A model generated the notes under the pieces. The model ran no database searches. It had not been told where the DNA came from and worked only from the letters and a program-made list of their open reading frames with translations. 33,278 nucleotides of DNA from Calditrichia bacterium (GTDB lineage Bacteria; Calditrichota; Calditrichia; RBG-13-44-9), in contig JARRQT010000039.1 in NCBI GenBank assembly GCA_037381445.1, forward strand, positions 2,041 through 35,318, in the 5' to 3' direction. Positions 1,274 to 23,394 of the stretch are shown here, one piece after another. Numbering within the stretch: the stretch's first letter is position 1; every line of letters starts with the position of its first letter. Both the position numbers and the translations under genes were made by a program.

Positions 1274-1824
1274 AAAAGAGTCTCCTAATTCTGACGATTT
1301 TCCTGGGAATCGCAGTTTCCCTGAATATCAAAAATCAGTGGTTTTTGGTACCGGCAGTTTTGGGGATTATTTTCCTGATGGACAGAAAAGTTTTCAGGAT
1401 CATCCTGAAATGGAAATTCCTGTTTTTTCTTGCCCTGCTGGTTCTGGCAGTCCCTCTGTTTGCCGGAATAAAGGACGCCGCTTTTTACGGAATATCATAT
1501 TCTTCACAAATGTTTCATATGAGCGTGGTGATGGCTGGCCGTAGTATCATTATTCTTCTCTCTTTGAGATTGTTTACGTCCAGAATTTCGGTAGAACAAC
1601 TGGCGGAGGGGATGCAGCGGATCCATTTAAGGCAATTCAGCCAGGTTTTCGCCCTCTCTATGCAGACCCTGCCGCAGATCAGGACGATTGCTGGCACAGC
1701 CTATCGGGAATACCGTGATAAACCGCGGCGGAAGAATATTTTCGCATATTTTTTCAATTTGGCCGTAATATTAGTTGTAAGAATTTTGGAATTTGCCAAT
1801 ACCCTCTCTTCATCCAAAGCCTGA
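1270..1824 (+). CDS. Membrane protein, short ECF T-component (CbiQ/EcfT)-like
   Basis: Hydrophobic N-terminal helices, then LFTSRISVEQLAEGMQRIHL...FALSMQTLPQI, which resembles the EcfT region 'TT..el..al..l....l.l.lrflP.l'. ATGA overlap with the upstream gene. Confidence 0.5.
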   Translation: MKKSLLILTIFLGIAVSLNIKNQWFLVPAVLGIIFLMDRKVFRIILKWKFLFFLALLVLAVPLFAGIKDAAFYGISYSSQMFHMSVVMAGRSIIILLSLRLFTSRISVEQLAEGMQRIHLRQFSQVFALSMQTLPQIRTIAGTAYREYRDKPRRKNIFAYFFNLAVILVVRILEFANTLSSSKA

Positions 1825-1837
1825 AGGGATATCATAA

Positions 1838-3802
1838 ATGATCAATCATTTTTTTGCAGACGCATTTATCCTGCTGATATTTGTAATGCTTCCGAATCTT
1901 GAGGCCCGAACACCTGCAGATACACTGAAGACTTACCATATGAGCGAAATTGTGGTGCTGGGCGAAAAGCTGCCGCAGATCGATATGGCAACGGTGCATG
2001 AAATCCATCAGAAACAAATCAAACTGCTGGATATACATGATGCCCGGGATGCGCTGAAATTCACGCCGGGGATCTATTTTTCACGAAATACAAAAAATGA
2101 GACTACTTTCCGGCTGAGAGGATTCGAACAGCGGCAGGTGAGTGTTTTTCTGGATGGCGTTCCAATTTCAGTCCCATATGACGGAATTGTGGATATCTCG
2201 CAGCTGGCCGGTGACAACATCGAAAATATCCGCATCTCCAAAGGCGTATCTTCGGTGCTCTACGGGGCAAATACGCTGGGAGGCGGCGTCAATATTATAA
2301 CCGGAATTCCCAAAAAACAGCATGCTTTTCAGCTTCGTCTGGAGGGCTCCGATCAGTCACGAATATATGGTGCCATGAACTACTACGGGAGTCTGGGACG
2401 GCTGCGCTATGTGACTGCCTTGAGCTTTGAAAACGCTCCAAATTTTCGATTACCGCAAAAGACAAAAGCAATGCTGAATGAAAACGGGGGAGCGAGGGAC
2501 AATAGCGCATTTCAAAAAAGCAGTGCTTCGCTGAAGCTGCACTATGACCTTAATTCTACTCATCATGTGGGATTCCATGTCAACTGGATCAAAAATCGTT
2601 TTAATGTTCCTCCCAATGCTTTGGAAAACCGCCCCCGCTATTGGCAATTCCCCGACTGGCAAAAAAATGTGATGAGCCTGAACAGCGAACATTTATTTTC
2701 CGGCAGGTTTGTTTTGCGCACCGTCTGGTATTACGATAAATACAAGAATGTTCTGCAATCATATGATGACGCCAGCTACTCCGCCCAGACATTCCGGTAT
2801 GCTTTCAAATCGATTTATGATGATTACTCCCTGGGAAGCATCTTGTATCCGGAGTGGAGTATTCTGCCCTTTGGCACCAGTCACGGCGTCATTTCCTTCA
2901 AGCAGGATGTGCATCGCGAGAAGGCCGCCGATAATGCGCCTTTTCAGAGATATTCAATGGAAACCTGGACCGTCGGTCTCGAACAGGATATCCGCTTTTC
3001 GCAGAAATTACTGGGAAAGGCCGGGGCAGATTTGAATTATCTCAAGCCTTTTTTTGCAAACAATGCCGATTTACGAAAGCCGATTTTGCTTGCGAACGGT
3101 CAGATCGCTTTTCAGTATCAACTGGGGGACAACCGGACATTACATGCTTCTGTCGGAAAGAAGAGCCGTTTTCCAACTTTGAAGGAGCTTTACAGTGAGC
3201 GACTGGACCGGAATATTCCAAATCCTGATTTGAAGGCCGAACATTCTGTCAATTTCGAAATCGGTACCGGCTGGACAGGGAAGAAAATCAATTTCACTGT
3301 CAGCGGCTTTTATAATCGCCTGGCCGATCTAATTGTCAATCGACAATTGGGCAATGGCCTTCAACAATCCAGTAACATCGGCAGGGCAAGCCTGTGGGGA
3401 CTGGAAACCGGCTGGCAAGCACAATGGGGCAGAGTAGATGGGAATGTTAACTATACTTTTTTAAACGCCCGCAATTTGTCGGATGAAAGCGCTACAAAAT
3501 ATCTGGAGTACCGTCCGGCCCACCGGGTGAATGCCATTTTCTCGTGCACCTTGAATTCCCGTCTGCGGGTAGCATCCGAGGCCAGCTATACCGCCAGTCA
3601 GTATTATCAAAATCCCAATAGCCTGAAATGGGAAAAGCTGAATAATTTTGCTTTATTCAATCTTAAGGCCAACTATAATTTTTCCGGGAACAGCTCCATT
3701 TATCTCCGCATCAATAATCTGACCGACAAATTCTATTACAGCGAATACGGCATACCCATGCCGGGACGCGAGATAGTTACCGGTTTCCGTTTTGGAGTCT
3801 GA
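1838..3802 (+). CDS. TonB-dependent outer-membrane receptor
   Basis: Signal peptide, TonB-box-like SEIVVLG, plug motifs (LRGFEQRQVSVFLDGVP; IENIRISKGVSSVLYGANTLGGGVNIIT), NPDLKAE, INNLTDKFY and PGREIVTGFRFGV terminus. Confidence 0.95.
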   Translation: MINHFFADAFILLIFVMLPNLEARTPADTLKTYHMSEIVVLGEKLPQIDMATVHEIHQKQIKLLDIHDARDALKFTPGIYFSRNTKNETTFRLRGFEQRQVSVFLDGVPISVPYDGIVDISQLAGDNIENIRISKGVSSVLYGANTLGGGVNIITGIPKKQHAFQLRLEGSDQSRIYGAMNYYGSLGRLRYVTALSFENAPNFRLPQKTKAMLNENGGARDNSAFQKSSASLKLHYDLNSTHHVGFHVNWIKNRFNVPPNALENRPRYWQFPDWQKNVMSLNSEHLFSGRFVLRTVWYYDKYKNVLQSYDDASYSAQTFRYAFKSIYDDYSLGSILYPEWSILPFGTSHGVISFKQDVHREKAADNAPFQRYSMETWTVGLEQDIRFSQKLLGKAGADLNYLKPFFANNADLRKPILLANGQIAFQYQLGDNRTLHASVGKKSRFPTLKELYSERLDRNIPNPDLKAEHSVNFEIGTGWTGKKINFTVSGFYNRLADLIVNRQLGNGLQQSSNIGRASLWGLETGWQAQWGRVDGNVNYTFLNARNLSDESATKYLEYRPAHRVNAIFSCTLNSRLRVASEASYTASQYYQNPNSLKWEKLNNFALFNLKANYNFSGNSSIYLRINNLTDKFYYSEYGIPMPGREIVTGFRFGV

Positions 3803-3803
3803 T

Positions 3804-4289
3804 ATGCCGGACCGCTTGTTGTCCCCGGTATTGATTGTGGGCAGAAAAAATTCCGGGAAAACCGCCTACCTCGAATATCTTATCCGAAAAATGAAAGAAA
3901 TGAATTTATCCGTCGGCGGTATTCTGAGTGTCGGAGAACCGGCGGGTGGTGATAAAGAAACCTATTTTTTAAAGAATATAGATACCGGGGAGAAGTTTTT
4001 GCTGGCCTCCAAAATCAGGGATTCATCGCGGTCACTGAAATATGGTGATTATTATTTTAATCCCGATTCTTTTGCCAGGGGTAGTCGAATTATGAAAGGC
4101 TGTCTGTCCGCTGATGCAATTATTCTGGATGAATACGGTCCGGTGGAACAGATGGGAAAAGGCTTCAGCGAAGCGCTGGAATTTCTGCTCCGCCACTATC
4201 GGGGATTTCTGTTCATTGCAGTCCGGCCCGTGGTACTTCCCCATTTGAAATCCGTATTGCTGAATAATCTCGGGGAAAGAATAAAATGA
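3804..4289 (+). CDS. P-loop NTPase (DUF2478 / NTPase_1 THEP1-like)
   Basis: Walker A GRKNSGKT, VGGILS, Walker B AIILDEYGPVE..GKGF. ATG 3804 follows GGAG at 3794. Confidence 0.8.
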   Translation: MPDRLLSPVLIVGRKNSGKTAYLEYLIRKMKEMNLSVGGILSVGEPAGGDKETYFLKNIDTGEKFLLASKIRDSSRSLKYGDYYFNPDSFARGSRIMKGCLSADAIILDEYGPVEQMGKGFSEALEFLLRHYRGFLFIAVRPVVLPHLKSVLLNNLGERIK

Positions 4290-4855
4290 CTATGGATACT
4301 GAAAAGCTCTGGAGGGACTTCAACCAAAAATTGGAAGGATTCATTATAAAACGGATCAATGATGCGGAAGATGCGCGGGATATCCTGCAGGAAGTCTATC
4401 TAAAGATTCATTCATATGCCGAAAAAATATCCGGCCTGCGGAATACGGAAAACTGGCTCTACAGCATTACCAGCAACACTATCATCGATTATTACCGGAC
4501 GCGAAAGAATAAAAAACAATTGCCGGAGGAATTGAGTGCGATGCCGGAATTAGATAGCGGGGATGTTAAAAAGCAGCTTGCCCCTGCCATCAGATCCATG
4601 ATAGATACACTGCCGAATCCTTACCGGGAAGCGCTTATCTTCACGGAATATCAGGGAATGACCCAAAGTGGGCTGGCCCAAAAAATGGGAATTTCCCTTT
4701 CCGGGGCAAAATCCAGAGTGCAGCGCGCCAGAAAAATGCTGCGGGATATTATGGACGAATGCTGCCACTATGAACTGGACCGCTTCGGATGCGTCATCGA
4801 TTATCAGCCTAAATGTCAATACTGCTTCCATCATATTCCACGCCCCAAAAAATAA
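4286..4855 (+). CDS. sigZ: ECF RNA polymerase sigma factor, SigZ-like, with Cys-rich C-terminus
   Basis: Region 2 DARDILQEVYLKI...WLYSITSNTIIDYYR; region 4 LPNPYREAL...GISLSGAKSRVQRAR; C-terminal ECCHYELDRFG typical of SigZ. Confidence 0.85.
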   Translation: MTMDTEKLWRDFNQKLEGFIIKRINDAEDARDILQEVYLKIHSYAEKISGLRNTENWLYSITSNTIIDYYRTRKNKKQLPEELSAMPELDSGDVKKQLAPAIRSMIDTLPNPYREALIFTEYQGMTQSGLAQKMGISLSGAKSRVQRARKMLRDIMDECCHYELDRFGCVIDYQPKCQYCFHHIPRPKK

Positions 4856-4857
4856 TC

Positions 4858-4885
4858 TGCGTCCTTTTTCCGGATGATTCGTCTA
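4858..4885 (+). promoter_or_regulatory. Putative ECF (SigZ-dependent) promoter TGCGTC-N16-CGTCTA
   Basis: CGTC -10 element with a 16-nt spacer, the geometry of SigW/SigM-type ECF promoters. Lies directly after sigZ and before the AAGGAG RBS of the methyltransferase. Confidence 0.5.
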
Positions 4886-4909
4886 TGGTAATAAAAAAGG
4901 AGAAAGACG

Positions 4910-5731
4910 ATGAATTCTGAGGATAAGAAAAGGACAGAAAATTCGGAGCAGCCTGCAAAAAGAATTCCCCAGATAACAAAATCTGATCAAATTGAAAATG
5001 GATGCTGCGCTTGTCACTCTGGAAGAATGGAAAAGGGAATATTGGCGGAATTTGATTTAGGGCCAGGGAATAATTCTCACATCGAAATTAGCAGTCAGCC
5101 TTATTTCCAGCAAATCGCGACGGAGTGGGAAAACATGCGCAGGAGCTTTTTTTCGGAATCGGTAAGGGAAAAAGCGTACCGGGCTGCCGGAATCGAGCCT
5201 GGAAAAGTGGCAGCCGATCTTGGCGCAGGCAGCGGCTTTATGACAGAGGGACTGCTGCGAGCAGGATTGAAGGTAATCGCGGTGGACCAGTCCTCCAATA
5301 TGATAAAGGAGATGCGCAGAAGGTTTGCGGAAAATGAAAATGTTGAATACTGCCTGGGTGACGCCCACAGTTTGCCGCTGCCGGATGGCTCCGTAGATTA
5401 TGTTTTTGCCAACATGTATCTCCATCATGTGGAATCTCCGGTGCGTGCAATAAAAGAAATGCGCAGGATTCTGAAACCGGGCGGCAAACTGGTCATCGTC
5501 GATCTGGAGGAACATAATTATGAATTTTTGAAGACCGACCAGCACGATCGCTGGCTGGGATTCAGGCGGCATGGTATTCTAAACTGGTTCAGAGCAGCCG
5601 GTTTAAAAAATATATCGGTGAGTTTCCCGGAGGAAAACTGCTGTTCATCTTCAGCCTGCGGCCGCGGCCCAGCGACAATCCGCATTTTTCTGGCCTCTGG
5701 TGAAGCTGCCGAGCAATCATGTTGTATTTAA
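4910..5731 (+). CDS. Class I SAM-dependent methyltransferase with Cys-rich N- and C-terminal segments
   Basis: Motif I AADLGAGSG, VIAVDQS, GDAHSLPLPDGSVDYVF, RILKPGGKL, HDRWLGF. Cys clusters GCCACH, NCCSSSAC and SCCI. Confidence 0.85.
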   Translation: MNSEDKKRTENSEQPAKRIPQITKSDQIENGCCACHSGRMEKGILAEFDLGPGNNSHIEISSQPYFQQIATEWENMRRSFFSESVREKAYRAAGIEPGKVAADLGAGSGFMTEGLLRAGLKVIAVDQSSNMIKEMRRRFAENENVEYCLGDAHSLPLPDGSVDYVFANMYLHHVESPVRAIKEMRRILKPGGKLVIVDLEEHNYEFLKTDQHDRWLGFRRHGILNWFRAAGLKNISVSFPEENCCSSSACGRGPATIRIFLASGEAAEQSCCI

Positions 5732-5793
5732 AGAGATGATCTGTAATTCGACTGGTTTATTCAATAAACACATTCATAGTTGAATATTTTATT

Positions 5794-5822
5794 TTGTGAA
5801 TGCCGGTAAGCTACCATATATT
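5794..5822 (+). promoter_or_regulatory. Putative sigma70 promoter for the cytochrome cluster (TTGTGA-N17-TATATT)
   Basis: 17-bp spacer. The predicted +1 falls at or near the ATG at 5829, which has no SD sequence (possible leaderless start). Confidence 0.35.
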
Positions 5823-5828
5823 GTCACA

Positions 5829-6672
5829 ATGAAAAGAACAAAAATTCACCAGCTATTTATTTTTATATTGATTTTTGTAATTTGCCGGAATACTGGCTAT
5901 AAGTGAAAATAAATGGTTAGTTGCAGATCAGGGCGCGCAAATGATCAGCATGGTGGATGAGACACAGGGAAAGATTTCTCCGATAAGCCGGCACAAGAAA
6001 TTGCCATCTCCGGTCGGGATTTGCAGAATGGAGTCAGCCGGCTATCTGCTTACCGATTCCCAATTGGAAAAGATTTTTATTTACCGCGAACAAGATAACC
6101 GGCTTGGCATACTGAACGAGAACCTTGTTTTGAAGCGCCCTACCGGAATCTGCTTTCTGGCAGCACGGGGTGAAATCTGGGTTGTCGAAACCCTGCTGCA
6201 CCGTATCACAATTCTGAACAAGGCAGGCGAGATGCTGCGCACAATAGGAAAAAGAGGCACTGCAGCAGGCGAATTTAATTTTCCCACCCATATCTGGGCT
6301 GATAAATCCGGTACCGTGTATGTTGTGGACGCCATGAATTTCCGGGTTCAGATTTTTTCAGCGGAAGGTGAATATCTTTCCTCTTTTGGCCAGCCCGGCG
6401 ATGCCAGCGGTTATTTTGCCCGGCCGCGGGGAATCGCGACGGATTCGTTCGGAAATATTTATGTTGTAGATGCCCTTTTTCATGCTGTGCAGATTTTTGA
6501 TGCAAAAGGCAACTATTTATCCCATTTCGGAGAGCAGGGGAGGGAAGCGGGACAATTCTGGCTCCCGGCGGGCATCTATATTGACGAAAATAATTATGTG
6601 TATGTAGCAGACAGCTTTAATGGTCGGATTCAGGTGTTTCAGCTTGTCCGCGGGGGGCCTGGTGAAAATTGA
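5829..6672 (+). pseudogene. NHL-repeat six-bladed beta-propeller protein with disrupted 5' end (frameshift or deletion; could be a sequence error)
   Basis: Signal-peptide ORF MKRTKIHQLFIFILIFVIC... (5829-5906) is in a different frame from the NHL frame, which is open from 5881 (FAGILAISENKWLVADQG) to 6672. It contains GEFNFPTHI, GYFARPRGIATD and GQFWLPAGIYID repeats. Confidence 0.6.
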
Positions 6673-8353
6673 AAAATTTGTCATTATATTTTTCAGTTTC
6701 TTTACGGCGGAATTTTTATCGGCGCAATCGGTTATCAATAGCGTTCACAATCTTTCGGTCAGCGGCCCGGGCACGATTAGGGCTGCAGAAGAATCCGAAA
6801 TCTGCATTTTTTGCCATACCCCGCATAGTTCCAGTCCCCGTCAGCCGCTCTGGAACCGGCCCGACCCGGGGATAAGCTATAACCTTTATCAGAGCTCAAC
6901 AACACAGGCGCTTTCCGGTCAGCCCACCGGTGCTTCTCTGCAGTGTCTCTCCTGCCATGACGGAACCATCGCCCTGGGTAATGTTCTGAGCAGAAACCGG
7001 CCCATAGATTTTTCGGGAGGGATAACGACGCTGCCCTCCGGAACTTCCAATCTTACATCCGATTTGTCCGATGACCATCCCATTTCATTTATTTATAATT
7101 CGACCCTGGCCATTTCGGACGGAGAGCTTGCCGACCCGGCTTCTTTAGCTGGTCCCGTCATGTTAAGCGACAGCCGCATGGAATGCACCTCCTGCCATGA
7201 TCCGCACCAGAATCTTTTTTCCGACTTTCTGGTAGTCTCAAATCAATACTCCGATCTATGCCTGTATTGCCATCATAAGAATTACTGGGAGCAGACCAGT
7301 CACAGGCTGTCTCTCGCTGACTGGAACGGCAGCGGGCAGAATCCCTGGTTTCATACCCCATTCGAAACTGTCTCCGAGAACGGGTGCGAGAATTGCCATA
7401 ATCCTCATAATTCGCGGGGACATTCCAGACTAATGAATTATCTGGCTGAGGAGAGCAATTGTCTCGCCTGTCATGATGGGAATGTGGCGGGGCGGGATAT
7501 ACAGGCGCAGTTCAGCAAACCCTATCGCCACGAAATTTATCATTATAACCAGATATATGATCCCGAAGAGCCAAATACTGTTCAGGTCAGGCATGTGGAG
7601 TGTGAGGACTGCCATAATCCGCACGCCAGCAGGCAGGCAGAGGCAGCACCGCCAAATGCCAATGGTTTTGTTGCGGGGACAAGAGGAATTGACAGCAATG
7701 GGAATCCCGTAGATCCTGTGCGGTATGAATATGAGCTGTGCTATCGGTGTCATGCGGACAGCCCCGATAAACCGGGCTCGCCCACGGCCCGGCAGATTGA
7801 GCAAAATAATGTTCGTCTGGAATTCGCCATGGCCAATCCTTCATATCATCCGGTTGAAGGCGAGGGCAAAAATCCGAATTCGCCAAGCCTGATTTCGCCC
7901 CTAAGCGAAACCAGCATCATCTATTGTACGGATTGTCATGCCAGCGACGGCAGCAGTGCGCCGGCCGGTCCTCACGGCTCACTATATGCGCATATCCTCA
8001 AGTTCCGTTACGAAACGGCTGACAATACGATCGAATCATATGAAAATTACCGATTATGCTATGAATGCCATGACAGGAATACCGTTACAAACGGCGCGGG
8101 GCAGTTTGCGCGCCGGATCCACAGGCTGCATATTGTGGGCGAGAACACGCCCTGCAATGCCTGCCACGATCCCCATGGCATTAACAGCGCACAGGGGAAT
8201 TCTGCAAATAATACACATCTGATAAATTTTGACATTGCAATAGTTTCCGCTGATCCGGGCAGCGGGCGGCTGGAGTTTGTAGATCTGGGAAATTTCAGCG
8301 GACGCTGCTACTTAAGGTGTCACGATGAGACACATAATCCCAAATCATATTAA
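6662..8353 (+). CDS. Secreted multiheme c-type cytochrome (11 CxxCH + 1 CxxxCH) with OmcE-like N-terminal tetraheme domain
   Basis: GTG 6662 start with signal peptide. Motifs: CIFCH, CLSCH, CTSCH, CLYCH, CENCH, CLACH, CEDCH, CYRCH, CTDCH, CYECH, CNACH and terminal CYLRCH. Confidence 0.9.
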   Translation: MKIEKFVIIFFSFFTAEFLSAQSVINSVHNLSVSGPGTIRAAEESEICIFCHTPHSSSPRQPLWNRPDPGISYNLYQSSTTQALSGQPTGASLQCLSCHDGTIALGNVLSRNRPIDFSGGITTLPSGTSNLTSDLSDDHPISFIYNSTLAISDGELADPASLAGPVMLSDSRMECTSCHDPHQNLFSDFLVVSNQYSDLCLYCHHKNYWEQTSHRLSLADWNGSGQNPWFHTPFETVSENGCENCHNPHNSRGHSRLMNYLAEESNCLACHDGNVAGRDIQAQFSKPYRHEIYHYNQIYDPEEPNTVQVRHVECEDCHNPHASRQAEAAPPNANGFVAGTRGIDSNGNPVDPVRYEYELCYRCHADSPDKPGSPTARQIEQNNVRLEFAMANPSYHPVEGEGKNPNSPSLISPLSETSIIYCTDCHASDGSSAPAGPHGSLYAHILKFRYETADNTIESYENYRLCYECHDRNTVTNGAGQFARRIHRLHIVGENTPCNACHDPHGINSAQGNSANNTHLINFDIAIVSADPGSGRLEFVDLGNFSGRCYLRCHDETHNPKSY

Positions 8354-8463
8354 TGAGCGCAGGAGATGTGAGTTGAAGAACAGGTATTTAGAATAAAATG
8401 ACAGTTTCTTAATTAAGTAGTCTTGAGCATCATGAAACTTCACCATAAGGGAAAGGAGTATCC

Positions 8464-9093
8464 ATGAGAATGAATCGACTGCTTTATTTTTGCCTGCCAG
8501 CTTTTATGTTCCTGCTTTCCACAGAAAAAGCAAATTGCCAAAGTATTATTGGTTCCGCCCACGATTTTTCATCCGAAACCTGGAACACCACGGGACAAGT
8601 CTGCATTGTTTGTCATGCCCCCCACAATACAGAGGTCGCTGTGACTGATGCGCCGCTGTGGAATCATCAATCCTCCGTCGCAGCTTTCAGCCCCTACAGC
8701 AGCGCGACATTGAACGCGGTGGTCGGGCAGCCGGATGCTTCGTCAAAATTATGCCTGAGCTGTCATGATGGGACTGTGGCCGTCGATAATTTTGGCGGGA
8801 CCACTTCTGGCACCTATTTTATCAGCGGACGGACTCTGATTGGAACGGATCTGCGGGATGATCACCCGGTCTCTTTTACCTATGACGCTGCATTGGCACT
8901 GGATGATGGCGAACTCGCCGATCCGACAACCGCCAATTCAGGTTTGGGCGGAACGATTGATGAAGATATGCTTATCGGCCATCAGGTTCAATGTGCATCG
9001 TGCCACGATGTACACAACAGCAGCGGCATTGATAAACTGCTGAAAAAATCAAATGCCCAGAGCGCACTTTGTCTGACCTGCCATGTCAAATAA
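8464..9093 (+). CDS. Tetraheme c-type cytochrome, OmcE-like (cytochrome nanowire subunit family)
   Basis: Signal peptide; 4 CxxCH (CIVCH, CLSCH, CASCH, CLTCH). Signature order HDFS, CxxCHxPHN, PLWN, CLSCHDG, GTDLRDDHPVSF, CxSCHDVH, LCxxCHxK-stop matches Geobacter OmcE as recalled. Strong SD AAGGAG at 8453. Confidence 0.85.
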   Translation: MRMNRLLYFCLPAFMFLLSTEKANCQSIIGSAHDFSSETWNTTGQVCIVCHAPHNTEVAVTDAPLWNHQSSVAAFSPYSSATLNAVVGQPDASSKLCLSCHDGTVAVDNFGGTTSGTYFISGRTLIGTDLRDDHPVSFTYDAALALDDGELADPTTANSGLGGTIDEDMLIGHQVQCASCHDVHNSSGIDKLLKKSNAQSALCLTCHVK

Positions 9094-9151
9094 TGGCGTT
9101 TGATGCAATATTACTGCACTCTAATTCAGAATAGCCGGAGAATAAAAGGAA

Positions 9152-10222
9152 ATGGCTGCAAGGAAAAAATTTGTCTTTTTTGTGATCTTATTTTCAGTAT
9201 GCTGTGCCAATCTACTGCTGGCGGGAGGGAAGCAGCCCCGGCAAAGGCCCGAGGCTGTCATCTTTCCTCCTCCGCCTGATACGACCCGCATTCAGTTTCT
9301 GACGCGGATCAGCACTTCCGCGGACGTGACCGGCAGACGCAGCGGATTTCTGAGATACATTATGGGGGAGGAAAAAGAACGCCCCATTATCAAGCCCTAC
9401 GGCCTCGCAGCTTTTCGGGGGAAAATTTATATCTGTGACACCATTCTCGGCGGACTTGAAATTATCGATCTGAAATCCAAAACATTTGAATATTTTACCC
9501 CCGAAGGCCGCGGAAAGCTTCGCAAACCCATAAACTGCGCGGTTGACGACCGGGGGGATCTGTATGTAGCCGACTCGGAAAGAAGACAGGTTGTGGTTTT
9601 TGACAGCAACGGTAACTATCACAGCAGTTTCGGCAATCCGGATTCGCTGAAACCAACAGATGTTTTCATTACACCGGGCACGGTATGGGTCTGCGATATC
9701 CTGGCAAAGAAAATCCGGGCGTATGATCAAAACAGCTATCGCCCCCTCATGTCATTTCCCCATGCGGCTGCGGGCGAATCAGGCTATCTGTTTTCTCCAA
9801 CCAATCTTTATGTCAGAAATGACCGCATATATGTCAGTGATTTTGGGGACTTCAAAATCAAGATTTTTAATATTGAAGGCAAATATCTGAAATCCATCGG
9901 AAGTTACGGCCGGAACGTCGGGCAGTTCGTACGTCCCAAGGGCATCGCAGTGGATGAGGAGGACAATCTCTTTGTGGCGGATGCCGGTTTTGAAAATGTC
10001 CAGATATTTAATTCCCGGGGAAAAATATTGATGTTTTTCGGCGGAAGCTATAAAGGTCCGGGCAACATGTGGCTGCCCGCCAAAGTGGTGATTGACTATG
10101 AAAATACAGATTTCTTCAGAGAATTTGTTGATCCCGCTTTCAACTTAAAATATCTCATCTATGTCACAAACCAGTACGGACCGGACAAAATCAGCGTATA
10201 CGGATTTGTTGAACCCAGGTGA
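9152..10222 (+). CDS. Secreted NHL-repeat six-bladed beta-propeller protein
   Basis: Signal peptide, FPPPPDTTRIQFL, and repeats KPYGLA, KPINCAVD, KPTDV, SPTNL, GQFVRPKGIAVD, GNMWLPAKV. Confidence 0.9.
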   Translation: MAARKKFVFFVILFSVCCANLLLAGGKQPRQRPEAVIFPPPPDTTRIQFLTRISTSADVTGRRSGFLRYIMGEEKERPIIKPYGLAAFRGKIYICDTILGGLEIIDLKSKTFEYFTPEGRGKLRKPINCAVDDRGDLYVADSERRQVVVFDSNGNYHSSFGNPDSLKPTDVFITPGTVWVCDILAKKIRAYDQNSYRPLMSFPHAAAGESGYLFSPTNLYVRNDRIYVSDFGDFKIKIFNIEGKYLKSIGSYGRNVGQFVRPKGIAVDEEDNLFVADAGFENVQIFNSRGKILMFFGGSYKGPGNMWLPAKVVIDYENTDFFREFVDPAFNLKYLIYVTNQYGPDKISVYGFVEPR

Positions 10223-10256
10223 GATTAAAACTGTGATTTTTGCGGGCAGGTGCAAA

Positions 10257-10820
10257 ATGGGTCTTCATTTTTTGAAATTTTTATTCCCGTTATGTTTGCT
10301 GGTTTTCACCGCATGCGCATCGTCGGGAAATTATAAAATTCTGTCTTTTTTCTTCGACGGCGTGGAAAATAAAAGTGAAATCAAAAATCAGCCGGCGGAT
10401 TCCCTGAAGGCCGAATCCGCGCTGCAGCAGTCGGCGCAGGGATTGAAAACGGCATCGGGGCCCGGGTATTTCTACCACGCTGTGTATCAGGAACGGGCCT
10501 GCGGTTCCTGTCATGATAGCGAAAATGGCTACAAATTATTGGAACCTGTGCCGGACCTGTGTTATGAATGCCATGAAAACTTCAGCGACAAATACAGTTA
10601 TTTGCACGCTCCGGTAGAAGCCGGAGAGTGCACGACCTGCCATCATCCCCACTTTTCTCGAAATGACCATCTGCTGGTTCGGACGGGACAAGATTTATGC
10701 TTTTCCTGCCATGCCAGCGAGGACATTCTGGGGAGTGAAACCCATTCCGAAATTGGGGAAACAGTCTGCACGGAGTGCCATAATGCCCACGGGGGCGAGG
10801 ATGAAACACTTTTCAATTAA
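10257..10820 (+). CDS. Pentaheme c-type cytochrome lipoprotein
   Basis: Likely start ATG 10257; lipobox-like VFTA-C; LSFFFDGV segment; CGSCH, CYECH, CTTCH, CFSCH, CTECH. Confidence 0.85.
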   Translation: MGLHFLKFLFPLCLLVFTACASSGNYKILSFFFDGVENKSEIKNQPADSLKAESALQQSAQGLKTASGPGYFYHAVYQERACGSCHDSENGYKLLEPVPDLCYECHENFSDKYSYLHAPVEAGECTTCHHPHFSRNDHLLVRTGQDLCFSCHASEDILGSETHSEIGETVCTECHNAHGGEDETLFN

Positions 10821-10860
10821 CGAAAAACTGCATATACAGGGAACGGTTTTTCTGATTACC

Positions 10861-12825
10861 ATGAAAATTGAACACAAAATTATATTTGTTCTTTTCGTAT
10901 TGTCCTCCTTGAGCATGGAAAGCATGGCGGAGATAAACGGTTTCGGCGGGAGTTTCTGGAATCAACAGTCTCTGAATGGGGCAGTCATTCTGGAAGGAAG
11001 ATACCGCAGCCTGAAAACAGTGCTGGAAAACAGGTTCGATGAATTCCAGAAAACTGCTATAGCCACCGGACGTCTGCTGCTCCGCTCCAGAAGTTATATC
11101 TGGCATCCCAACTTCATGCTGCTGAATATTGATCTTGATTACCAGCCTGGCAACCGCCGCGATAACTACCTGGTCATTCCGGACCGCTCGGAAACGCAGA
11201 TTGCGGAGCGAGGACATATTGAGGCCGCTTTTTTTGATCAGCGTCCCCTCTCTGTGGTGCTCTTTTCAAACCTGAATCATAGTTATATCAACCGTGAGTT
11301 GTTAACAAATATCGAAACGTACAAAACCGATTTTGGCGGAATGCTGCGTTTCCGGAATCGCAGTTTTCCTTCTTCGCTTCGCTATCTGCAGGAACGGTGG
11401 AGCCAAAAAGAGCTTGCAACCGGCCGGCAATTCAGGAACCGGCGGAAAAATCTGACCTGTAATGTTAGTCAATCATTTTCTTCGCGGGATGCCCATCAAT
11501 TATTGTTTGCCTGGGATGATTATCGCAGAGATTACGGATCGGGCCAATTCATCGAAAACAAGGTATCCAGCATTAATTTGAGGGATAATTTTTTCTTTGA
11601 TAAAGAACAGAGCAGCAGCCTGAATTCGCTGGTCTGGTATTATCATCAAACCGGAAATGAGCAACTTAACAGGTTCCAGTTGTTCGAAAATGTCGGTGTC
11701 CGTCTGCCCAAAAATTTCAGATTTCTGGGGAATTACCAGTATGCAAGGTTCAGCCAACCGACACTGTCCTCTAACCGGCACAATTTCAACAGCCGGCTGG
11801 AGCATCAATTGTTTTTAAGCCTGCGCAGCATGATTTTCTATGAGTATTCATTTTTACGGCAATCGCATTTCAGCGAACTGAATAATACCGTGGGTTTGGG
11901 TCTGAAGTACCGCAAAAAAATACCATACGGCATATTCATGCTGAATTATGAATTCAGAAGGCGCCACCAGAACCGCTCCAGCCGTCCCGGTGTCTTGACC
12001 ATAGTCAATGAAGAGCATCGACTGGAGGATGCGGCCGTAATTCTGCTGGACAATCCGTTTGTCATCGCCGGCAGCGTTGTCGTGCATGACGCCACCGGAA
12101 CAATTATTTATCAGGAAAATCTGGACTATGTTCTGATTCAGCAGGGAAATTTTCTGGAAATTCAGAGATTGCCGGGCGGGGAGATACCGGCCGGCGCCGC
12201 CATTTTCATAAATTATACAGCCGAGCAGCAGCTATCCTTTCAATTTAACAGCTTTGGAAATAACGTTGGCACAAACGTCTCTTTGTTCAACCAGTTAATG
12301 GAATTTTATTTCACCTTTTTTAACCAGGACAACAGCAATTATTCTCTGCCGGAGAGCCGGATATTGAAATACATTACCCGCCGCGTATATGGCATTCGGA
12401 GTTCCTATAGTTTTATTTCCGCGGGATTTGAATTTGATGATTATAACAGCAACATTATCCCCTACGAATCAAAACGTTTCTATATCGCCGTGAGCGGTCA
12501 ATTGGCAGAGAGGGTGGATGCGGTCATCACAGGAAATTACAGGGACTACCTTCTGAATGCGGACAATGAAAGGCAAAAATTTTCGGACTTTTCGGGAAGG
12601 GTAAATTACCGGATTTTTCAGAATTCGCGATTCAGCATGGAAGGGGGATACCGTATCCAGAACGGCCGCGGCATCGACCTGAAGTTATCCACCTTCCGCG
12701 GTGAATTTTCAACGCTTTACCGCAGGATTATTCTGACCCTTGGCTATGAAACCTACTTCCGCAAATTTTCAGATGAGAGAAGAAACTTCAACGGCACTTT
12801 TCTGCGAATCCAACGGCAATTCTGA
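10861..12825 (+). CDS. Large outer-membrane beta-barrel protein (porin-like) with inserted soluble domain
   Basis: Likely start ATG 10861 with signal peptide. Alternating aromatic/polar beta-strand pattern throughout; C-terminal FLRIQRQF BAM-type beta-signal. Confidence 0.75.
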   Translation: MKIEHKIIFVLFVLSSLSMESMAEINGFGGSFWNQQSLNGAVILEGRYRSLKTVLENRFDEFQKTAIATGRLLLRSRSYIWHPNFMLLNIDLDYQPGNRRDNYLVIPDRSETQIAERGHIEAAFFDQRPLSVVLFSNLNHSYINRELLTNIETYKTDFGGMLRFRNRSFPSSLRYLQERWSQKELATGRQFRNRRKNLTCNVSQSFSSRDAHQLLFAWDDYRRDYGSGQFIENKVSSINLRDNFFFDKEQSSSLNSLVWYYHQTGNEQLNRFQLFENVGVRLPKNFRFLGNYQYARFSQPTLSSNRHNFNSRLEHQLFLSLRSMIFYEYSFLRQSHFSELNNTVGLGLKYRKKIPYGIFMLNYEFRRRHQNRSSRPGVLTIVNEEHRLEDAAVILLDNPFVIAGSVVVHDATGTIIYQENLDYVLIQQGNFLEIQRLPGGEIPAGAAIFINYTAEQQLSFQFNSFGNNVGTNVSLFNQLMEFYFTFFNQDNSNYSLPESRILKYITRRVYGIRSSYSFISAGFEFDDYNSNIIPYESKRFYIAVSGQLAERVDAVITGNYRDYLLNADNERQKFSDFSGRVNYRIFQNSRFSMEGGYRIQNGRGIDLKLSTFRGEFSTLYRRIILTLGYETYFRKFSDERRNFNGTFLRIQRQF

Positions 12826-12894: not shown

Positions 12895-15800
12895 TTATCT
12901 TAATAGAATCATTTTCTTTGCTTCAGCAAAGTTGCTCCCAATCTTTATGGAATAAAAATAAATTCCCGAAGAAAGCGAGGCGGCATCAAAATGTATGCTG
13001 TATTGCCCCGGCTGCTGATAACTGTCAACCAATGATTTTATCATCCTTCCTCCAAGGTCGTAGATTTTTAGTTCGACCCTAGCCGCCTGCTTAACATCAT
13101 AGGATATGGTGGTTGTGGGATTAAATGGATTGGGATAATTTTGATACAGGCAAAAGTCCCGGATCAATTTATCATTTCCGGTTTCTATTCCGGTAACGAC
13201 CTCCTGCTCCCGGCTGAAAAGGGAGCCGCAGAAATTATTGTCGATACTCTGAATGCTCCAGTAGACCGGCCCGTCGGGCACATCCTTAATCACCCACTGT
13301 TTGTTATGATTAACATTCCCAAGCTTTGGTTGATTCAGAACCCCAGTCTCGGGATTCGACATTGCCGATTTTATCTCCTGTCCACCCGGCGTTGTGCCAA
13401 TCCGCAGGTTATAGGTCAGGGCGGCGCGTTCGGTTTCCTTATCCGAACCATCACCCCAGGTGAAGACCAGATCGTTCTCCTGCCAGGATGCGCTCAGATC
13501 CACAGGTGGTTGGGGTGCGGTATTCGCTATATCCATACCATTTTTGAAGATATGTGTTTGCGGGCCATAGAAAAAATTCATGCCGGTTATCATGAAATCC
13601 AAATCACCATCATTGTCGTAGTCCGCCCAGGCAATTGAACCATGTTCGATTCCTGTAAAATCAACGCCAATATCAACAAAACTTCCCTTGTAATTTTCGT
13701 AGATGCCAGCGTAAAAGCATGAATCCCGGTCACTGTAACCGGTCATGAGCACATCAAAATCGCCATCGTTATCATAATCGCCCCATACAACATTGCCACC
13801 GCTCACCGGCTGCAGTGCCGCGAGGATATCGGTAAAAGAGCCGTTATCATTATTATATATTTTTGTGACCGGTCCGGCGTTCGCCCGCCCGCTTAAAATG
13901 ACATCCAAATCTCCATCGTTATCATAATCGCCAAAGCTGGTGGCTGAAAAAGAAACCGGCTCAAAGATATTATCAGAAAGGACAAATGAACTGTCTGAAT
14001 TTATGTAAAGTGACGCGATTCTACCGTTCATAGTCTCTCCTGAAATTAGTAAATCCAGGTCTCCATCATTATCATAATCCCCCCAGGCAACGTCACCATA
14101 ATCAACGCCTGGCAGCGAAATACCGGACTCCACAAAGGAAGTGCTGTCGTTCCTGTATATTTTTGTGGCCGGGCCACCGGCAGCAAACCCACTAATGACC
14201 ACATCGAGATCTCCATCATTGTCATAGTCGCCCCAATCGGCGGCACCGCCAAAAACGTTCATAAAATTCTGACCACTATTGACGAAATGCCCTTCGTCAT
14301 TTCTGTAAAGAATTGTGGTGTCTCCAAGATCACTGAAGCCGGCAATCAACAGGTCCAGATCATTATCGTTGTCGTAATCGCCCCATTCGCACAACCCCCA
14401 GTTACCCCCAATAATACCGGTCTGAAGCGCTTCAAATGTGCCTTCATCATTACGGTAAATATCGGCTACCAGCCTGGTAGTATAATCGCTGGAACCCGAA
14501 TACGCCAGGTCCAGGTCGCCGTCATTATCATAATCCCCCCAGGCAATGCAGCTTTGAATCAGCGTTGGCAAATTGCTGGATGCTTCTTCAAAAACGGTTT
14601 TCTCAGGCAAATTGATAATCCATATGATGAAAGTCGTATCTACAAAGCCGCTGAATTTATCAAATGCCGAGACCTGAATTTTCACTTCGCCGGTATCTAC
14701 CGGCAGTACACTCAGATGATATTCATCGAGCAGAACCTTTGCCTTGCTTGTGTCTTCGGACAATGCTGTTATCTGCAAATCATTGCCTTCGGGATCGTTA
14801 AAGATCCGCGGGCTTGATAAGAGGTTTCGCTGAAACACATCCCGTCCCAAGACCAGCGCCTGGTTTGGAATAGCATTTTCAACATACGGCTTCTGGTTAT
14901 TTGGATCGAAAAATACGGTAAACTCTCCTGCATCACAAAAAGGCGACCCTGCATAGCCGGCATTTATGGATTGTACACGCCAGTAGTAGGTACCGGGAGA
15001 TAAATTGACGATCTTTTTTTGGCGGGCATAACCGGCATTTCCAGGCCGGGCGACTTTTCGTCTCCCGTTAGTGAGGCTGGCCATCGGACTAACGATATCG
15101 CCCAGTCCGGGCTGTGTCCCAACCATTACATTATACGAATAACTTCCGGAATCCACCTGAACGGAATCCCAGGCCAACACAACCCTATTATTTTCGACCA
15201 GGGCCCACAGGCTGTCGGGGATGTGCAGGTTATGCACGGTATCCGGCAGGGTGGTATTCCTGTAGAGCACACTTTTACCGCTGCCGGTAATAAAAATATC
15301 CAGATCACCGTCACCATCAAAATCAGCAGCCGGTGCAGCACCGGCTCCCACAGCTTGAAACATGAAGTCACTTTTTACAAAATCCTGCCCAGTGTTTATG
15401 TAAAGATTGCTCCGTTGAACATATTGGGTACCATTGCCGGTAATAAAAATATCCGGCAATTCATCATTATTAAAATCTCCCCAGGTGGCATACCCCAGTC
15501 TAAGGTTTTCAAATATTGCCGGGACTTTTGTAAAACCGTCTGAATCGTTTCTATACAATTCCGATACTGGCCCGGATGCGGAACCAGCAAGAAACAGGTC
15601 TGCATAGCCATTCAAATCATAGTCGCCCCAACCAAAGAAACTATCAAGAAAACCGGTAAATTCATGGGCCAGAAAAAATCCTCCGTCCTTATTCTCATAA
15701 AGCTGTGATAGGCTTTGCCCATCCTGATTTTCGCCGGTCAGAAAAATATCAGGATCCGAATCATTATCATAATCGATCCAGTCCGCTTTCCCCCTAGATA

Positions 15801-16389
15801 TACCCGGGAGCGCAATCTCCTTTTTATTAAAGGTGTTATATCCAACATTTTCATAGACATAGGTAAATGTGCCGTCCGGCATTGAGGCACCACAGACCAG
15901 TATATCCAAATCACCATCACAGTCATAATCCCCCCACCTTGCACTCCCTGTATTGAAAGGTCTCAAGACGGCGTTTATATCCACAAAATTGTCATTATCG
16001 TTTCGATATATTTTAGTTATGCCCTGGGTATCATTGATAAATCCGGTTATTATCAGATCCAGATCTCCATCATTATCATAATCACCCCAATCGCACGATC
16101 CGCTGCAGACGTTGAGAATATTGGCATTTATATTTACAAAGACGCTGTCGTCATTCCTGTAGATGATTGATAATGAACGCTCACCGGCATCAATGACAGC
16201 CAGACCCACAACACATAAATCCATGTCTCCATCATTATCATAATCCCCAAATGCCGCGTCCACTCCATAAAAGCCCGGAATATCCACCGGCATTTCTTCG
16301 AATGTCTGCGCATCCAAATTAGGACTCAACAGCGACAGACAGAGTGAAAAGCATAACGTAAGATAAAGGAAATCCTTTTTTGTTTTCAT
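12895..16389 (-). CDS. FG-GAP/VCBS repeat protein (2 x 7 repeats, FN3-like and Ig-like domains) with T9SS C-terminal domain
   Basis: 14 WGDYDNDGDLD-type repeats in two blocks, LSPGTYYWRVQSI, and C-terminal YQNYPNPFNPTTTISY...SGIYFY...KKMILLR. Confidence 0.9.
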   Translation of the reverse strand: MKTKKDFLYLTLCFSLCLSLLSPNLDAQTFEEMPVDIPGFYGVDAAFGDYDNDGDMDLCVVGLAVIDAGERSLSIIYRNDDSVFVNINANILNVCSGSCDWGDYDNDGDLDLIITGFINDTQGITKIYRNDNDNFVDINAVLRPFNTGSARWGDYDCDGDLDILVCGASMPDGTFTYVYENVGYNTFNKKEIALPGISRGKADWIDYDNDSDPDIFLTGENQDGQSLSQLYENKDGGFFLAHEFTGFLDSFFGWGDYDLNGYADLFLAGSASGPVSELYRNDSDGFTKVPAIFENLRLGYATWGDFNNDELPDIFITGNGTQYVQRSNLYINTGQDFVKSDFMFQAVGAGAAPAADFDGDGDLDIFITGSGKSVLYRNTTLPDTVHNLHIPDSLWALVENNRVVLAWDSVQVDSGSYSYNVMVGTQPGLGDIVSPMASLTNGRRKVARPGNAGYARQKKIVNLSPGTYYWRVQSINAGYAGSPFCDAGEFTVFFDPNNQKPYVENAIPNQALVLGRDVFQRNLLSSPRIFNDPEGNDLQITALSEDTSKAKVLLDEYHLSVLPVDTGEVKIQVSAFDKFSGFVDTTFIIWIINLPEKTVFEEASSNLPTLIQSCIAWGDYDNDGDLDLAYSGSSDYTTRLVADIYRNDEGTFEALQTGIIGGNWGLCEWGDYDNDNDLDLLIAGFSDLGDTTILYRNDEGHFVNSGQNFMNVFGGAADWGDYDNDGDLDVVISGFAAGGPATKIYRNDSTSFVESGISLPGVDYGDVAWGDYDNDGDLDLLISGETMNGRIASLYINSDSSFVLSDNIFEPVSFSATSFGDYDNDGDLDVILSGRANAGPVTKIYNNDNGSFTDILAALQPVSGGNVVWGDYDNDGDFDVLMTGYSDRDSCFYAGIYENYKGSFVDIGVDFTGIEHGSIAWADYDNDGDLDFMITGMNFFYGPQTHIFKNGMDIANTAPQPPVDLSASWQENDLVFTWGDGSDKETERAALTYNLRIGTTPGGQEIKSAMSNPETGVLNQPKLGNVNHNKQWVIKDVPDGPVYWSIQSIDNNFCGSLFSREQEVVTGIETGNDKLIRDFCLYQNYPNPFNPTTTISYDVKQAARVELKIYDLGGRMIKSLVDSYQQPGQYSIHFDAASLSSGIYFYSIKIGSNFAEAKKMILLR

Positions 16390-17078
16390 TTTGGGGCTCC
16401 GAAGATTAATTGCAGGATATTTATCAGGATGTCACATGTAATCTTTCCAAGCGACTGACTGGATGCGATTTTATATTAAAATTTAATAATTGCGTGAATT
16501 TGTGCACCCTTTCCATGGTGACATCTTGAATATATTTTTTCAAACACTAACAATCAATAGGAAAGATATTTTTCGAGAATAATCACTTATTGCAGCAATG
16601 AGCCTGAGGCTTCCCCATACTTAATCTTGAGAAACAGTTTTGAGAAGCCATACATGTAAGAGTGAATCATTGTTATTCCAAATATCTTTCCCAAGCATCT
16701 GCTCATTCTTAAAGCGGGCAAAGTTAAAGCATAATAATGCAGCCGTGGGGAGAGAAGCCTTACTTTATGTGCATGTTATGCTTAATTCTCGAAAACAATG
16801 GGCCCGGAGCAGCGTCATTGCGGGACATTATGAAAATTGGGAGTAGTTTCGGAATCTTGACAAACACCAATCGGCTCTTGGCCTGTTCTGGTTTTCATTT
16901 TTCTTCAAAAATATGTCCGTTCCAACGATAAGAGGACTTGCCTAAAACTCCCATATATTTCCTGCTGTTTACTCTTCCTCCATGCAACATATGCTTGTGC
17001 AGATATATTTGGCGGTGAAATGCAATAATGCTGCAAATCTGCTCATTAATTTGAGACCTATGCTACGGGCTGATCTGT

Positions 17079-18236
17079 CTATTTAAGGAGCATCATTTTT
17101 TGCTTCTGCACAGAATTTCCCGCATTCAAACAACAAACATAAATCCCGCTGGCCAGATGCCCGGCTTCAAAAACATATTTATGCCTGCCGGCGGCAAGCA
17201 TTTTATTTGTAAGGGTAACGACTTCCTCTCCCAAAACATTATAGATTCTTAAAGTCACCAGCTCCGATCGCGGCAGAATAAATTCAATGGTCGTGCTGGG
17301 ATTAAAGGGATTCGGATAGTTTTGCAATAACCCAAAATCTTGCGGCGGATTTTTGGCATTTTTGATTCCAACCGGGCCCTGCGGGACTATTTTTTCAACC
17401 GTATTTACCGCCTGGCCGCCTTCGCCGATTCCGCCTACAACATAAAGATTATCCAGATATTTGGCCGTCGCCATCCAGTATCGCTCACTGCTTAGTTCAA
17501 ATCCATCCAGATGCCATTCATTCGCAGGAATGTCATAGGCAATGATGCTTTTGTACCAATCGCCGCCGATGCAATAAATGGTGCTGTCAAGAATGCCCAT
17601 GCCGCAAGCGTTTACCGGGTAGGGAGAATCCGCCAGTTGTGTCCATCGATCGATTTCCGGCGAATATTTATAAAACCCGGAAGAATAGTACCCGATAACG
17701 TAAATTTCATTATCAAAGAGGACCGACCTTAAACCGGCATCACCGTTGGCCGGACTATCCGCTATAGATGTCCATTCATCCGCGGCAATTTCGTAGCGAT
17801 AATTGTAACCATCAGGTAGAAAAAGGTAAATATAACCATCGAAATATTCCGCAGTAACACCCCAGGTCCAGATCGTACTGGGTCTGTGAGCGGGCGTAAA
17901 CCATGTCCCTTCCTCCAAAGAATACCGCTTGAAATAAAAACTCATACCCGGAAAACCGCCCAGCAGGTAAACATCGTTGACTGCCAAAACAGATTCCACG
18001 CCCCACAAGGCATTATAGGGAATGCTGTCGTGATATGCCCAGCTCCCGTCATACCTGTAGATGCGCTGATAAAGAAGCGAGGCTATGTCATCATTTGAGC
18101 CCCCGAAATGATAAACAGTGTTATGCCAGACTTCACAGGTCCCTGCGCCAATGGGGACCGGGAGGTCGGGCAAATCCTGCGCAATAAGCTGGCTCAGCAA
18201 CGCGCAGATAAAAAATATCCCTGTACAAATCTTCAT
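17079..18236 (-). CDS. Kelch-repeat beta-propeller protein with T9SS C-terminal domain
   Basis: Signal peptide; Kelch signatures VYHFGG, VYLLGG, IYVIG, IYCIGG, LYVVGG with Y...W; LQNYPNPFNP CTD. Confidence 0.9.
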   Translation of the reverse strand: MKICTGIFFICALLSQLIAQDLPDLPVPIGAGTCEVWHNTVYHFGGSNDDIASLLYQRIYRYDGSWAYHDSIPYNALWGVESVLAVNDVYLLGGFPGMSFYFKRYSLEEGTWFTPAHRPSTIWTWGVTAEYFDGYIYLFLPDGYNYRYEIAADEWTSIADSPANGDAGLRSVLFDNEIYVIGYYSSGFYKYSPEIDRWTQLADSPYPVNACGMGILDSTIYCIGGDWYKSIIAYDIPANEWHLDGFELSSERYWMATAKYLDNLYVVGGIGEGGQAVNTVEKIVPQGPVGIKNAKNPPQDFGLLQNYPNPFNPSTTIEFILPRSELVTLRIYNVLGEEVVTLTNKMLAAGRHKYVFEAGHLASGIYVCCLNAGNSVQKQKMMLLK

Positions 18237-18967: not shown

Positions 18968-19010
18968 AAAAAAGGCAGCTCACACAAATTATTTGCGCTG
19001 GTTGCCTTTA
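18968..19010 (-). terminator. Rho-independent terminator downstream of the AGE-family gene
   Basis: Minus strand reads AAGGCAAC-CAGCGCAAATAATTTGTGTGA-GCTGCCTT followed by a T-run. Confidence 0.6.
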
Positions 19011-19052
19011 TTAACTCAATTCCTCAAATAAATATTTTGCTGAAAATAATTT

Positions 19053-20855: not shown

Positions 20856-20920
20856 ATCATTTTCTCTCGCTGTTTTTAGAATTTGTCCCGGCTTGGAAAA
20901 TTAATCTGCACGCATCTCCG

Positions 20921-20955
20921 ATAAAGCGGGAAAGGCGCATCCAATAGCCTTTCCC
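20921..20955 (-). terminator. Hairpin / probable terminator after the beta-helix gene
   Basis: Perfect inverted repeat GGGAAAGGC (20928-20936) / GCCTTTCCC (20947-20955); weak T-tract on the minus strand. Confidence 0.45.
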
Positions 20956-20988
20956 TATAACGGAATTAAAGTGAATTTAGTAACCCGG

Positions 20989-23370: not shown

Positions 23371-23394
23371 AAAGTACCCCCCTTGTGTTTTTAT

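Follow-up and report, generated by a model that had tools for sequence, protein, structure and literature searches.

A conserved OmcE-type cytochrome cluster with a candidate filament adaptor in Calditrichota and related bacteria

Six genes of the + strand adjoin at positions 5829-12825 of a 33,278-nucleotide stretch of contig JARRQT010000039.1 from a Calditrichia bacterium (the whole analysed stretch is called the window). In order, this omcE-type cluster encodes an NHL β-propeller, a 12-haem cytochrome, a tetrahaem cytochrome, a second propeller, a pentahaem lipoprotein cytochrome and a predicted outer-membrane β-barrel. A preliminary description had reported six co-oriented genes with 21 haem-binding motifs, and both counts stand (12 + 4 + 5), one of the motifs being CX3CH. 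The signal peptides of the six products were judged by eye only.

The third gene (8464-9093, + strand) encodes the tetrahaem cytochrome, with four CXXCH motifs. It matches two entries in the PDB and no others: 9YUQ (E 2.2e-23), the OmcE filament of D. soudanensis, and 7TFS (E 3.7e-21), the OmcE filament of G. sulfurreducens (PMC13712944, PMC12954529). Starting from residue 16 or 29 and running to residue 209, the protein aligns with both structures over its full length, and the tetrahaem family profile gives E values of 1e-41 and 1e-39. The distal histidines His33, His54, His134 and His184 and the four CXXCH motifs align with both OmcE structures, which accounts for all eight haem histidines. 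These motifs and the four distal histidines are conserved in 60-63 of 63 relatives. The proposal that the protein is a relative of OmcE is thus borne out: judged by sequence it belongs to the OmcE family, and it is the predicted filament subunit. The hexahaem OmcS gave a weak profile match (E 7e-8 over about 35 positions).

The 12-haem cytochrome (6662-8353, + strand) consists of an OmcE-like tetrahaem head followed by eight further haems. Its longest open reading frame is 6620-8353, and the start is likely the GTG at 6662, which has a better Shine-Dalgarno sequence than 6620. It has 11 CXXCH motifs and one CX3CH; because the latter is kept in 51 of 52 aligned relatives, the earlier count of 12 haems is correct. 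The head (residues 33-220 of the 6620 frame) matches 7TFS (E 1.6e-25) and 9YUQ. Sixteen histidines outside the motifs are available for the 12 haems, each conserved in at least 50 of the 52-53 relatives. The heads form a clade of their own in the OmcE tree (support 100/99). These features make the protein a candidate for the base or cap adaptor of a filament.

Two smaller components follow the tetrahaem gene. Propeller 2 (9152-10222, + strand; Pfam NHL, E 1e-14) is 24% identical over 318 residues to the propeller beside a Geobacter-type omcE. A lipobox-like cysteine, by a crude pattern, is present in 38 of 65 relatives and is ambiguous in the copy of this genome. The pentahaem lipoprotein (10257-10820, + strand; five CXXCH) is a predicted membrane-anchored relay. 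All 51 aligned sequences share its Cys20, and His74, His117, His132, His163 and His178 are its conserved distal histidines. In all 56 loci with enough flank its gene lies directly upstream of the barrel gene.

The last gene (10861-12825, + strand) encodes a protein of 654 residues from an unnamed family, predicted from its sequence pattern to be an outer-membrane β-barrel. It has 27 alternating hydrophobic segments, compared with a mean of 17.8 and a maximum of 26 in 200 shuffles, and it ends in Phe, as do 87 of 92 homologues. The homologue of Caldithrix abyssi is named an outer-membrane β-barrel protein in UniRef. No match was found in Pfam, NCBIfam or the PDB, the last by both sequence and profile, and Pfam searches over 67 homologues found neither MtrB nor another porin family, apart from one weak OMP match (E 0.049). 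The ESM Atlas gave a lead only, with unnamed clusters at 0.99 (Bacteroidota, Planctomycetota, Thermodesulfobacteriota) and a Porin_4 cluster at 0.89. The best-conserved part of the gene is a segment of about 85 residues (11983-12237, + strand), whose mean column conservation is 0.60 versus 0.49-0.50 elsewhere in the barrel. This segment is limited to this barrel family among the sequences compared; it has no Pfam match, no significant PDB match and no match to SprA or any other protein of the genome. By analogy with the plugs of ushers it is possibly a plug-like insert. A second, distant barrel type of about 660 residues (E 1e-33 to 1e-47) occurs in L008:15261-21936 and in the genomes G008, G018, G019 and G034. 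Genomes with this type also carry a longer OmcE-like gene, and in L008 the barrel adjoins a 23-haem cytochrome.

The first gene, that of propeller 1 (5829/5941-6672, + strand; Pfam NHL, E 4e-20; predicted secreted and non-lipidated), is interrupted in the window. The leader beginning at the ATG at 5829 is out of frame with the body, as the preliminary description had noticed in calling the signal peptide disconnected. The relatives, 51 of which were tested among the matches listed, are 300-400 residues long, align only from about residue 70-120 on, which corresponds to about 5884-5980 of the window, and have about 55-70 additional residues at the break. One of the 51 has a lipobox-like cysteine by the same crude pattern. 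A contig from a different sample (X3, record 17, about 96% identical) covers 4800-5883 and 5883-7513 with 194 extra letters between them; by frame arithmetic from the length alone, this insertion restores a frame of 345 residues. In a further run, X1, possibly the source of the assembly, the contig departs from the window at 5883 with 202 letters not found on the window, and no record among the matches listed bridges the window junction at this point. Because X3 has the 194 letters and X1 diverges at the same place, the break is probably a 194-nucleotide assembly gap, with a minority deletion allele as the alternative. A point frameshift or a true pseudogene was rejected in favour of the gap on the strength of the longer relatives and the two contigs.

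The cluster recurs widely. A scan with the barrel profile over one genome per species gave 116 candidates, of which 111 were confirmed and 80 kept; related loci were therefore selected through the barrel, and kin among them are not independent. By record title the carriers are Calditrichota, KSB1, Bacteroidota, Ignavibacteria and Chlorobi, here taken together as members of the Fibrobacteres-Chlorobi-Bacteroidetes (FCB) group. As anticipated, the genes co-occur elsewhere: all six stand together in 36 of the 38 loci that have 9.5 kb or more on either side, and of the 56 loci whose upstream flank reaches 3.5 kb, 56 have a pentahaem-type gene, 56 propeller 2 and 53 omcE. The cluster is spread across FCB phyla, and the idea that it is lineage-specific falls. 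Within the phylum itself, 33 of 86 genomes have the barrel (29 below E 1e-100), 36 match the OmcE profile and 32 have both. Gaetbulibacter aquiaggeris KEM-8 (L074) is a cultured carrier of all six genes, and at least 4 of 301 genomes match in a sample of its family, the Flavobacteriaceae. The barrel is also found in the cultured Caldithrix abyssi DSM 13497 (Calab_1270), Lutimonas zeaxanthinifaciens and Aestuariivivens marinum, and G011, a closed genome from the same class, contains the complete cluster together with regulators, a 13-haem gene and a second omcE.

In 59 of the 70 loci with enough downstream flank an additional multihaem gene follows the barrel. The earlier characterization of the cluster as a self-contained kit is therefore doubtful, this gene being absent from the present genome; the closest loci, L001-L004, likewise lack a downstream cytochrome. 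Two loci from other organisms, L137 and L151, have the architecture of the window in rearranged form. Since the Atlas also holds look-alike 12-haem clusters from several further phyla, the variant is probably wider than FCB. Another cluster type (L110, L122, L127, L143, L154) has several trihaems, a propeller and an OmcE-headed 11-haem protein of 770-870 residues, often with a Phe-terminated gene product of 640-680 residues. A literature search combining Calditrich, multiheme, extracellular electron transfer and OmcE found nothing, and no report of the cluster in Calditrichota or Bacteroidota was found in titles and abstract openings, where coverage of subscription journals is thin and absence is not proven.

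OmcE-like genes also occur outside such clusters. Stand-alone tetrahaem genes with a leader peptide and an LWNH motif are present on five distinct phage-like contigs of IMG/VR (seven records, up to 536 kb), at L085:9986-10627, L086:9917-10534, L087:9989-10579, L088:7541-8221 and L098:6004-6639. No barrel or other multihaem gene is nearby, and PHROGs confirm that four of them lie among phage genes. Annotated plasmids and phages gave no match. In some related loci 4- and 5-haem OmcE paralogues follow the downstream 13-haem gene (L008:13346-14017, L009:13263-13949, L010:13265-14750, L061:13398-13970), with four such paralogues in L010. The 5-haem form resembles a proposed 'leaky' OmcE family (PMC13712944).

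A strong Shine-Dalgarno sequence, AGGAG (8454-8458, + strand), precedes the OmcE-like gene of the window; with an anti-Shine-Dalgarno duplex of -8.5 kcal/mol it is the second strongest among the cluster starts tested. In 31 of 55 relatives a terminator-like hairpin with z ≤ -3, scored against shuffles of two-letter blocks, lies 3' of omcE, and such hairpins follow the 12-haem gene in 1 of 51 and the barrel gene in 1 of 73 cases. The omcE hairpin is also present in 6 of 6 Geobacter-type loci tested. A hairpin specific to omcE fits a major subunit produced in excess of its assembly genes. Within 15 related loci a histidine kinase and a sigma-54 response regulator lie between the 12-haem gene and omcE (e.g. 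L009:4474-7337); 14 of the 15 kinases carry one CXXCH, and the window has neither gene. The kinase CXXCH and the regulator suggest redox control. A sigma-54 promoter motif before omcE was tried and rejected: none of the 16 loci that have the regulator shows it, 1 of the 43 without the regulator does, and the window lacks it. A promoter and terminator scan gave results near chance (17 versus 11.0; 6 versus 7.9).

The closest known counterpart is the omcE cluster of Desulfuromonadia. Petersen et al. (2026, PMC13712944) define a minimal cluster as OmcE with two multihaems, two propellers and a large barrel, and take a nearby barrel and propeller as the mark of a nanowire-capable omcE. The window holds exactly this inventory, its barrel being recognized by sequence pattern only. 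The available text of that paper names five phyla for OmcE clusters, none of them FCB; bacterial OmcE filaments are solved only in Desulfuromonadia, and its discussion treats their secretion, anchoring and ending as an open question. A motif scan yielded 51 metagenome loci, 28 of which, of at least 9 kb, were inspected; seven are Geobacter-type, with two duplicates (L142, L148). One of them, L130, has an OmcE matching 7TFS at E 1.9e-119, a purD-purE-resB-ccsB flank and glycosyltransferases, as described in the same paper. The two cluster types share the homologous tetrahaem with its four CXXCH motifs and four aligned distal histidines, two other multihaems, two propellers of which one is homologous, a large Phe-terminated barrel and, in the FCB relatives, the omcE terminator. 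The Geobacter-type 9/10-haem gene moreover resembles the 13-haem gene of the FCB relatives (35-39% over about 310 residues).

The two types also differ. Geobacter-type loci have an 8-haem gene (7/7), a 9/10-haem gene (5/7), propellers and a barrel of about 745-800 residues, whereas the barrel here has 654 residues and no significant homology to theirs. The OmcE-headed 12-haem protein is in none of the seven, and the place of the pentahaem lipoprotein is taken by an 8-haem protein with an N-terminal domain. The partner cytochromes of the window match the Geobacter-type 8-haem and 9/10-haem proteins only locally. Both propellers are lipoproteins in Desulfuromonadia, whereas propeller 1 here is predicted not to be one. 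A ninth histidine is found in the FCB tetrahaem but not in Geobacter-type OmcE. The purHDE-resB-ccsB and glycosylation genes of the Geobacter-type flank have no counterpart here, where maturation is by Ccm. The parallel drawn earlier with Geobacter loci thus holds for the gene count. It fails for the barrel, which is of another or a very remote family, and for the two extra cytochromes, which are not orthologues, and the cluster therefore does not correspond to the Geobacter locus gene for gene; on sequence grounds it is a variant of that locus, not a copy.

Other systems are less similar. In the omcS/osc cluster of G. sulfurreducens a filament subunit is encoded with a barrel and helper proteins. 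Its subunit OmcS is a hexahaem, in contrast to the tetrahaem here. That arrangement is summarized in PMC13712944. Porin-cytochrome conduits (MtrCAB, OmbB-OmaB-OmcB, PCC3/PCC4; He et al. 2017, PMC5566968) also place a predicted barrel beside multihaems, one of them a lipoprotein, but the present cluster has an OmcE homologue and two propellers. The cluster contains neither a described porin family nor an MtrA-like periplasmic decahaem of the MtrCAB, Pcc or PCC3/4 kind, its proteins score far below the cut-off with DmsE/MtrA-type models, and the five-helix inner-membrane protein described for PCC3/4 (PMC5566968) is not present in it. The clusters DFE_448-451 and DFE_461-465 of Desulfovibrio ferrophilus IS5, which Deng et al. 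(2018, PMC5815863) connect with extracellular electron uptake, likewise combine multihaems with two NHL propellers, but by their published description, on which this likeness rests, the propellers stand in the place of the barrel. Further background is given in PMC5317091, PMC12133095, PMC13194489, PMC12977616 and PMC9473688.

The host was identified through its RpoB. Because this is 89% identical to that of a Calditrichaceae genome (L001), the host belongs to the Calditrichota by sequence, as had been supposed; the identities to KSB1 (68%), another Calditrichia genome (66%), Ignavibacteriaceae (63%) and Gaetbulibacter (59%) are given for comparison. A Desulfuromonadia origin of the contig is ruled out by the same comparison. 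A contig of X3 runs from the upstream methyltransferase into the cluster and one of X1 from the cluster into the downstream gene; with both borders crossed there is no sign of chimerism, in keeping with what was first assumed. The assembly comprises 401 contigs and is 91.85% complete. Among the sequencing runs listed as matching it, the best is a salt-marsh metagenome, possibly its source, and none is of RNA, which is no evidence in either direction. A Pfam scan found no ccm or ccs genes in the window, as stated before; they are located on other contigs, with CcmA, B, C, E and F on contig C44 and a second CcmF-like gene in the assembly. The preliminary description had asked for maturation and quinol-oxidizing genes elsewhere in the genome, and the latter are represented by three candidates combining a multihaem part with a cytochrome-b-like tail (11, 18 and 19 motifs), a NapC/NirT-like hexahaem and an alternative complex III. 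A 16-haem and an at least 11-haem gene lie adjacent at the end of contig C334 of the genome G000 (L159:3839-6337), a possible second extracellular electron-transfer locus.

The cluster is flanked by a methyltransferase gene upstream and a gene with a type IX secretion system (T9SS) tail downstream. Upstream, at 4-5731, Pfam and NCBIfam identify a MobA-like transferase, two membrane proteins, a TonB-dependent receptor, an NTPase, a SigZ-type sigma factor and the methyltransferase, which is Cys-rich. These are possibly a cofactor-uptake unit, to which no link from the cluster is shown. Downstream, at 12895-26359 on the - strand, five consecutive genes carry T9SS sorting tails: FG-GAP repeats, Kelch, epimerase-like, one of no known type and a papain-like protease. 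In the genome as a whole, SprA and 24 PorV-family genes score above the cut-off, which agrees only in part with a T9SS-bearing host, since GldM and GldN were not found in it, the positive controls for these two being uninformative. No cluster protein has a sorting tail, and T9SS export of the cytochromes was therefore rejected.

Taken together, the cluster is real and conserved, and probably intact. We consider it somewhat better than an even bet that it encodes an OmcE-type filament that is exported at the barrel and receives its electrons by way of the pentahaem lipoprotein and the 12-haem protein as adaptor; that a filament forms, that the 654-residue protein folds as a barrel and what each component does, we infer from sequence. 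Quinol oxidases, namely the three multihaem-plus-cytochrome-b proteins, the NapC-like hexahaem and the alternative complex III, would deliver electrons to the periplasm, from where the pentahaem lipoprotein, placed at the barrel, would pass them on to the 12-haem protein. The OmcE-like head of the latter may join the end of the filament through the shared-haem histidine contact used by OmcE subunits, as a base or cap adaptor. OmcE would be produced in excess and polymerize, with the two propellers as putative assembly factors. The filament would be exported and anchored at the dedicated barrel, so that respiratory electrons could reach minerals or partner cells.

Several observations weigh against this filament mechanism. 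An extra histidine, His68 of the LWNH motif, is present in 57 of 63 FCB copies and is Arg in both structures and in 6 of 6 Geobacter-type copies, and a nine-histidine OmcE-like protein has been proposed to terminate the filament (Petersen et al., PMC13712944). The FCB tetrahaems are only 30-36% identical to Geobacter-type OmcE and lie apart from it across a 98/91 branch in a 59-row tree (midpoint-rooted for drawing only), in which most phage copies share the FCB side and the 12-haem heads are apart too. HHalign gives the comparison with the Geobacter-type barrel a probability of 2.1% (E 0.023), over the last 80 columns only; the reversed control gives 0.2% (E 0.26). The L140 barrel, included in the Geobacter-type alignment, matches the FCB profile at 5.6e-9, so a remote kinship of the barrels is possible. 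In the window omcE has no hairpin (z 0.2), and its codon bias, at the 65th percentile, is unremarkable; the 13-haem gene that most relatives have downstream was not found in this assembly. Finally, the role of cytochrome filaments in G. sulfurreducens itself is disputed, as Fe(III) oxide reduction survived a triple deletion (PMC11077965).

Some of these points would suit a porin-cytochrome conduit that makes no filament. In it the barrel would be threaded or capped by the pentahaem and 12-haem proteins, and the tetrahaem would form a terminal at the surface, as a monomer or in short chains, with its ninth histidine serving its own end haem. The conserved His68, the constant adjacency of pentahaem and barrel (56/56), a barrel family unlike the Geobacter-type and a separate OmcE subfamily speak for such a conduit. 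However, all four OmcE distal histidines are retained, and His68 is therefore surplus and not a replacement. The omcE-specific terminator, common to Geobacter-type loci, implies an excess of this subunit, and phages carry the tetrahaem alone (LWNH is present in 5 of 5 distinct copies), as is more natural for a subunit that assembles by itself or is added on than for one of fixed stoichiometry. We regard the conduit as unlikely, though it deserves to be taken seriously. If a filament or surface wire is made, its main role could also be something other than mineral respiration, such as electron uptake, syntrophic exchange, a fermentative electron dump or a biofilm tether. The carriers include heterotroph-rich groups such as the Flavobacteriaceae, and the paper on the C. 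abyssi genome speaks of fermentation and of nitrate reduction, 'ferric' and 'extracellular electron' being absent from its main text. Bundled OmcE has been proposed for biofilm and cell-cell functions (PMC13712944), and the Geobacter deletion data question mineral respiration (PMC11077965). The direction of electron flow is not readable from sequence. Yet the genome has several multihaem quinol-oxidase-like genes, and the kinase and sigma-54 regulator of the 15 loci point to redox control; such a different main role seems improbable.

A local explanation is that the cluster is decaying in this organism, with propeller 1 truly broken and the 13-haem gene, the regulators and the omcE terminator lost. 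The break at 5883, the 13-haem orthologue not found in the assembly and the missing hairpin agree with decay, but X3 supplies the 194 letters and X1 diverges at the same point, the other five genes are undamaged and keep every ligand, the closest loci also lack the downstream cytochrome, and the assembly, in 401 contigs, is 91.85% complete. We think decay very improbable. Returning to the filament mechanism, a broader version can be put forward tentatively, and as possible rather than probable: FCB heterotrophs may have a second OmcE nanowire architecture, with another barrel family and its plug-like insert as the usher and the OmcE-headed 12-haem protein as anchor or tip; in that case about one-third of Calditrichota species may have a wired connection to minerals or partners, and large phages may tap the system with a subunit of their own. 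The 2026 OmcE paper reports, in its available text, that no filament anchor or tip was found in Desulfuromonadia operons (PMC13712944).

What appears to be new here is an omcE-type cluster in a phylum not named for OmcE clusters, with a different barrel and a built-in candidate for an OmcE-headed adaptor. A compact operon thus holds a candidate anchor together with a different barrel, and about one-third of the genomes of the phylum, as well as cultured strains, carry it. With an anchor candidate, common occurrence and cultured strains, both filament assembly and the exchange of electrons between sediment heterotrophs and solids become testable. Calditrichota and their relatives likely build their own version of the electron-carrying wire.

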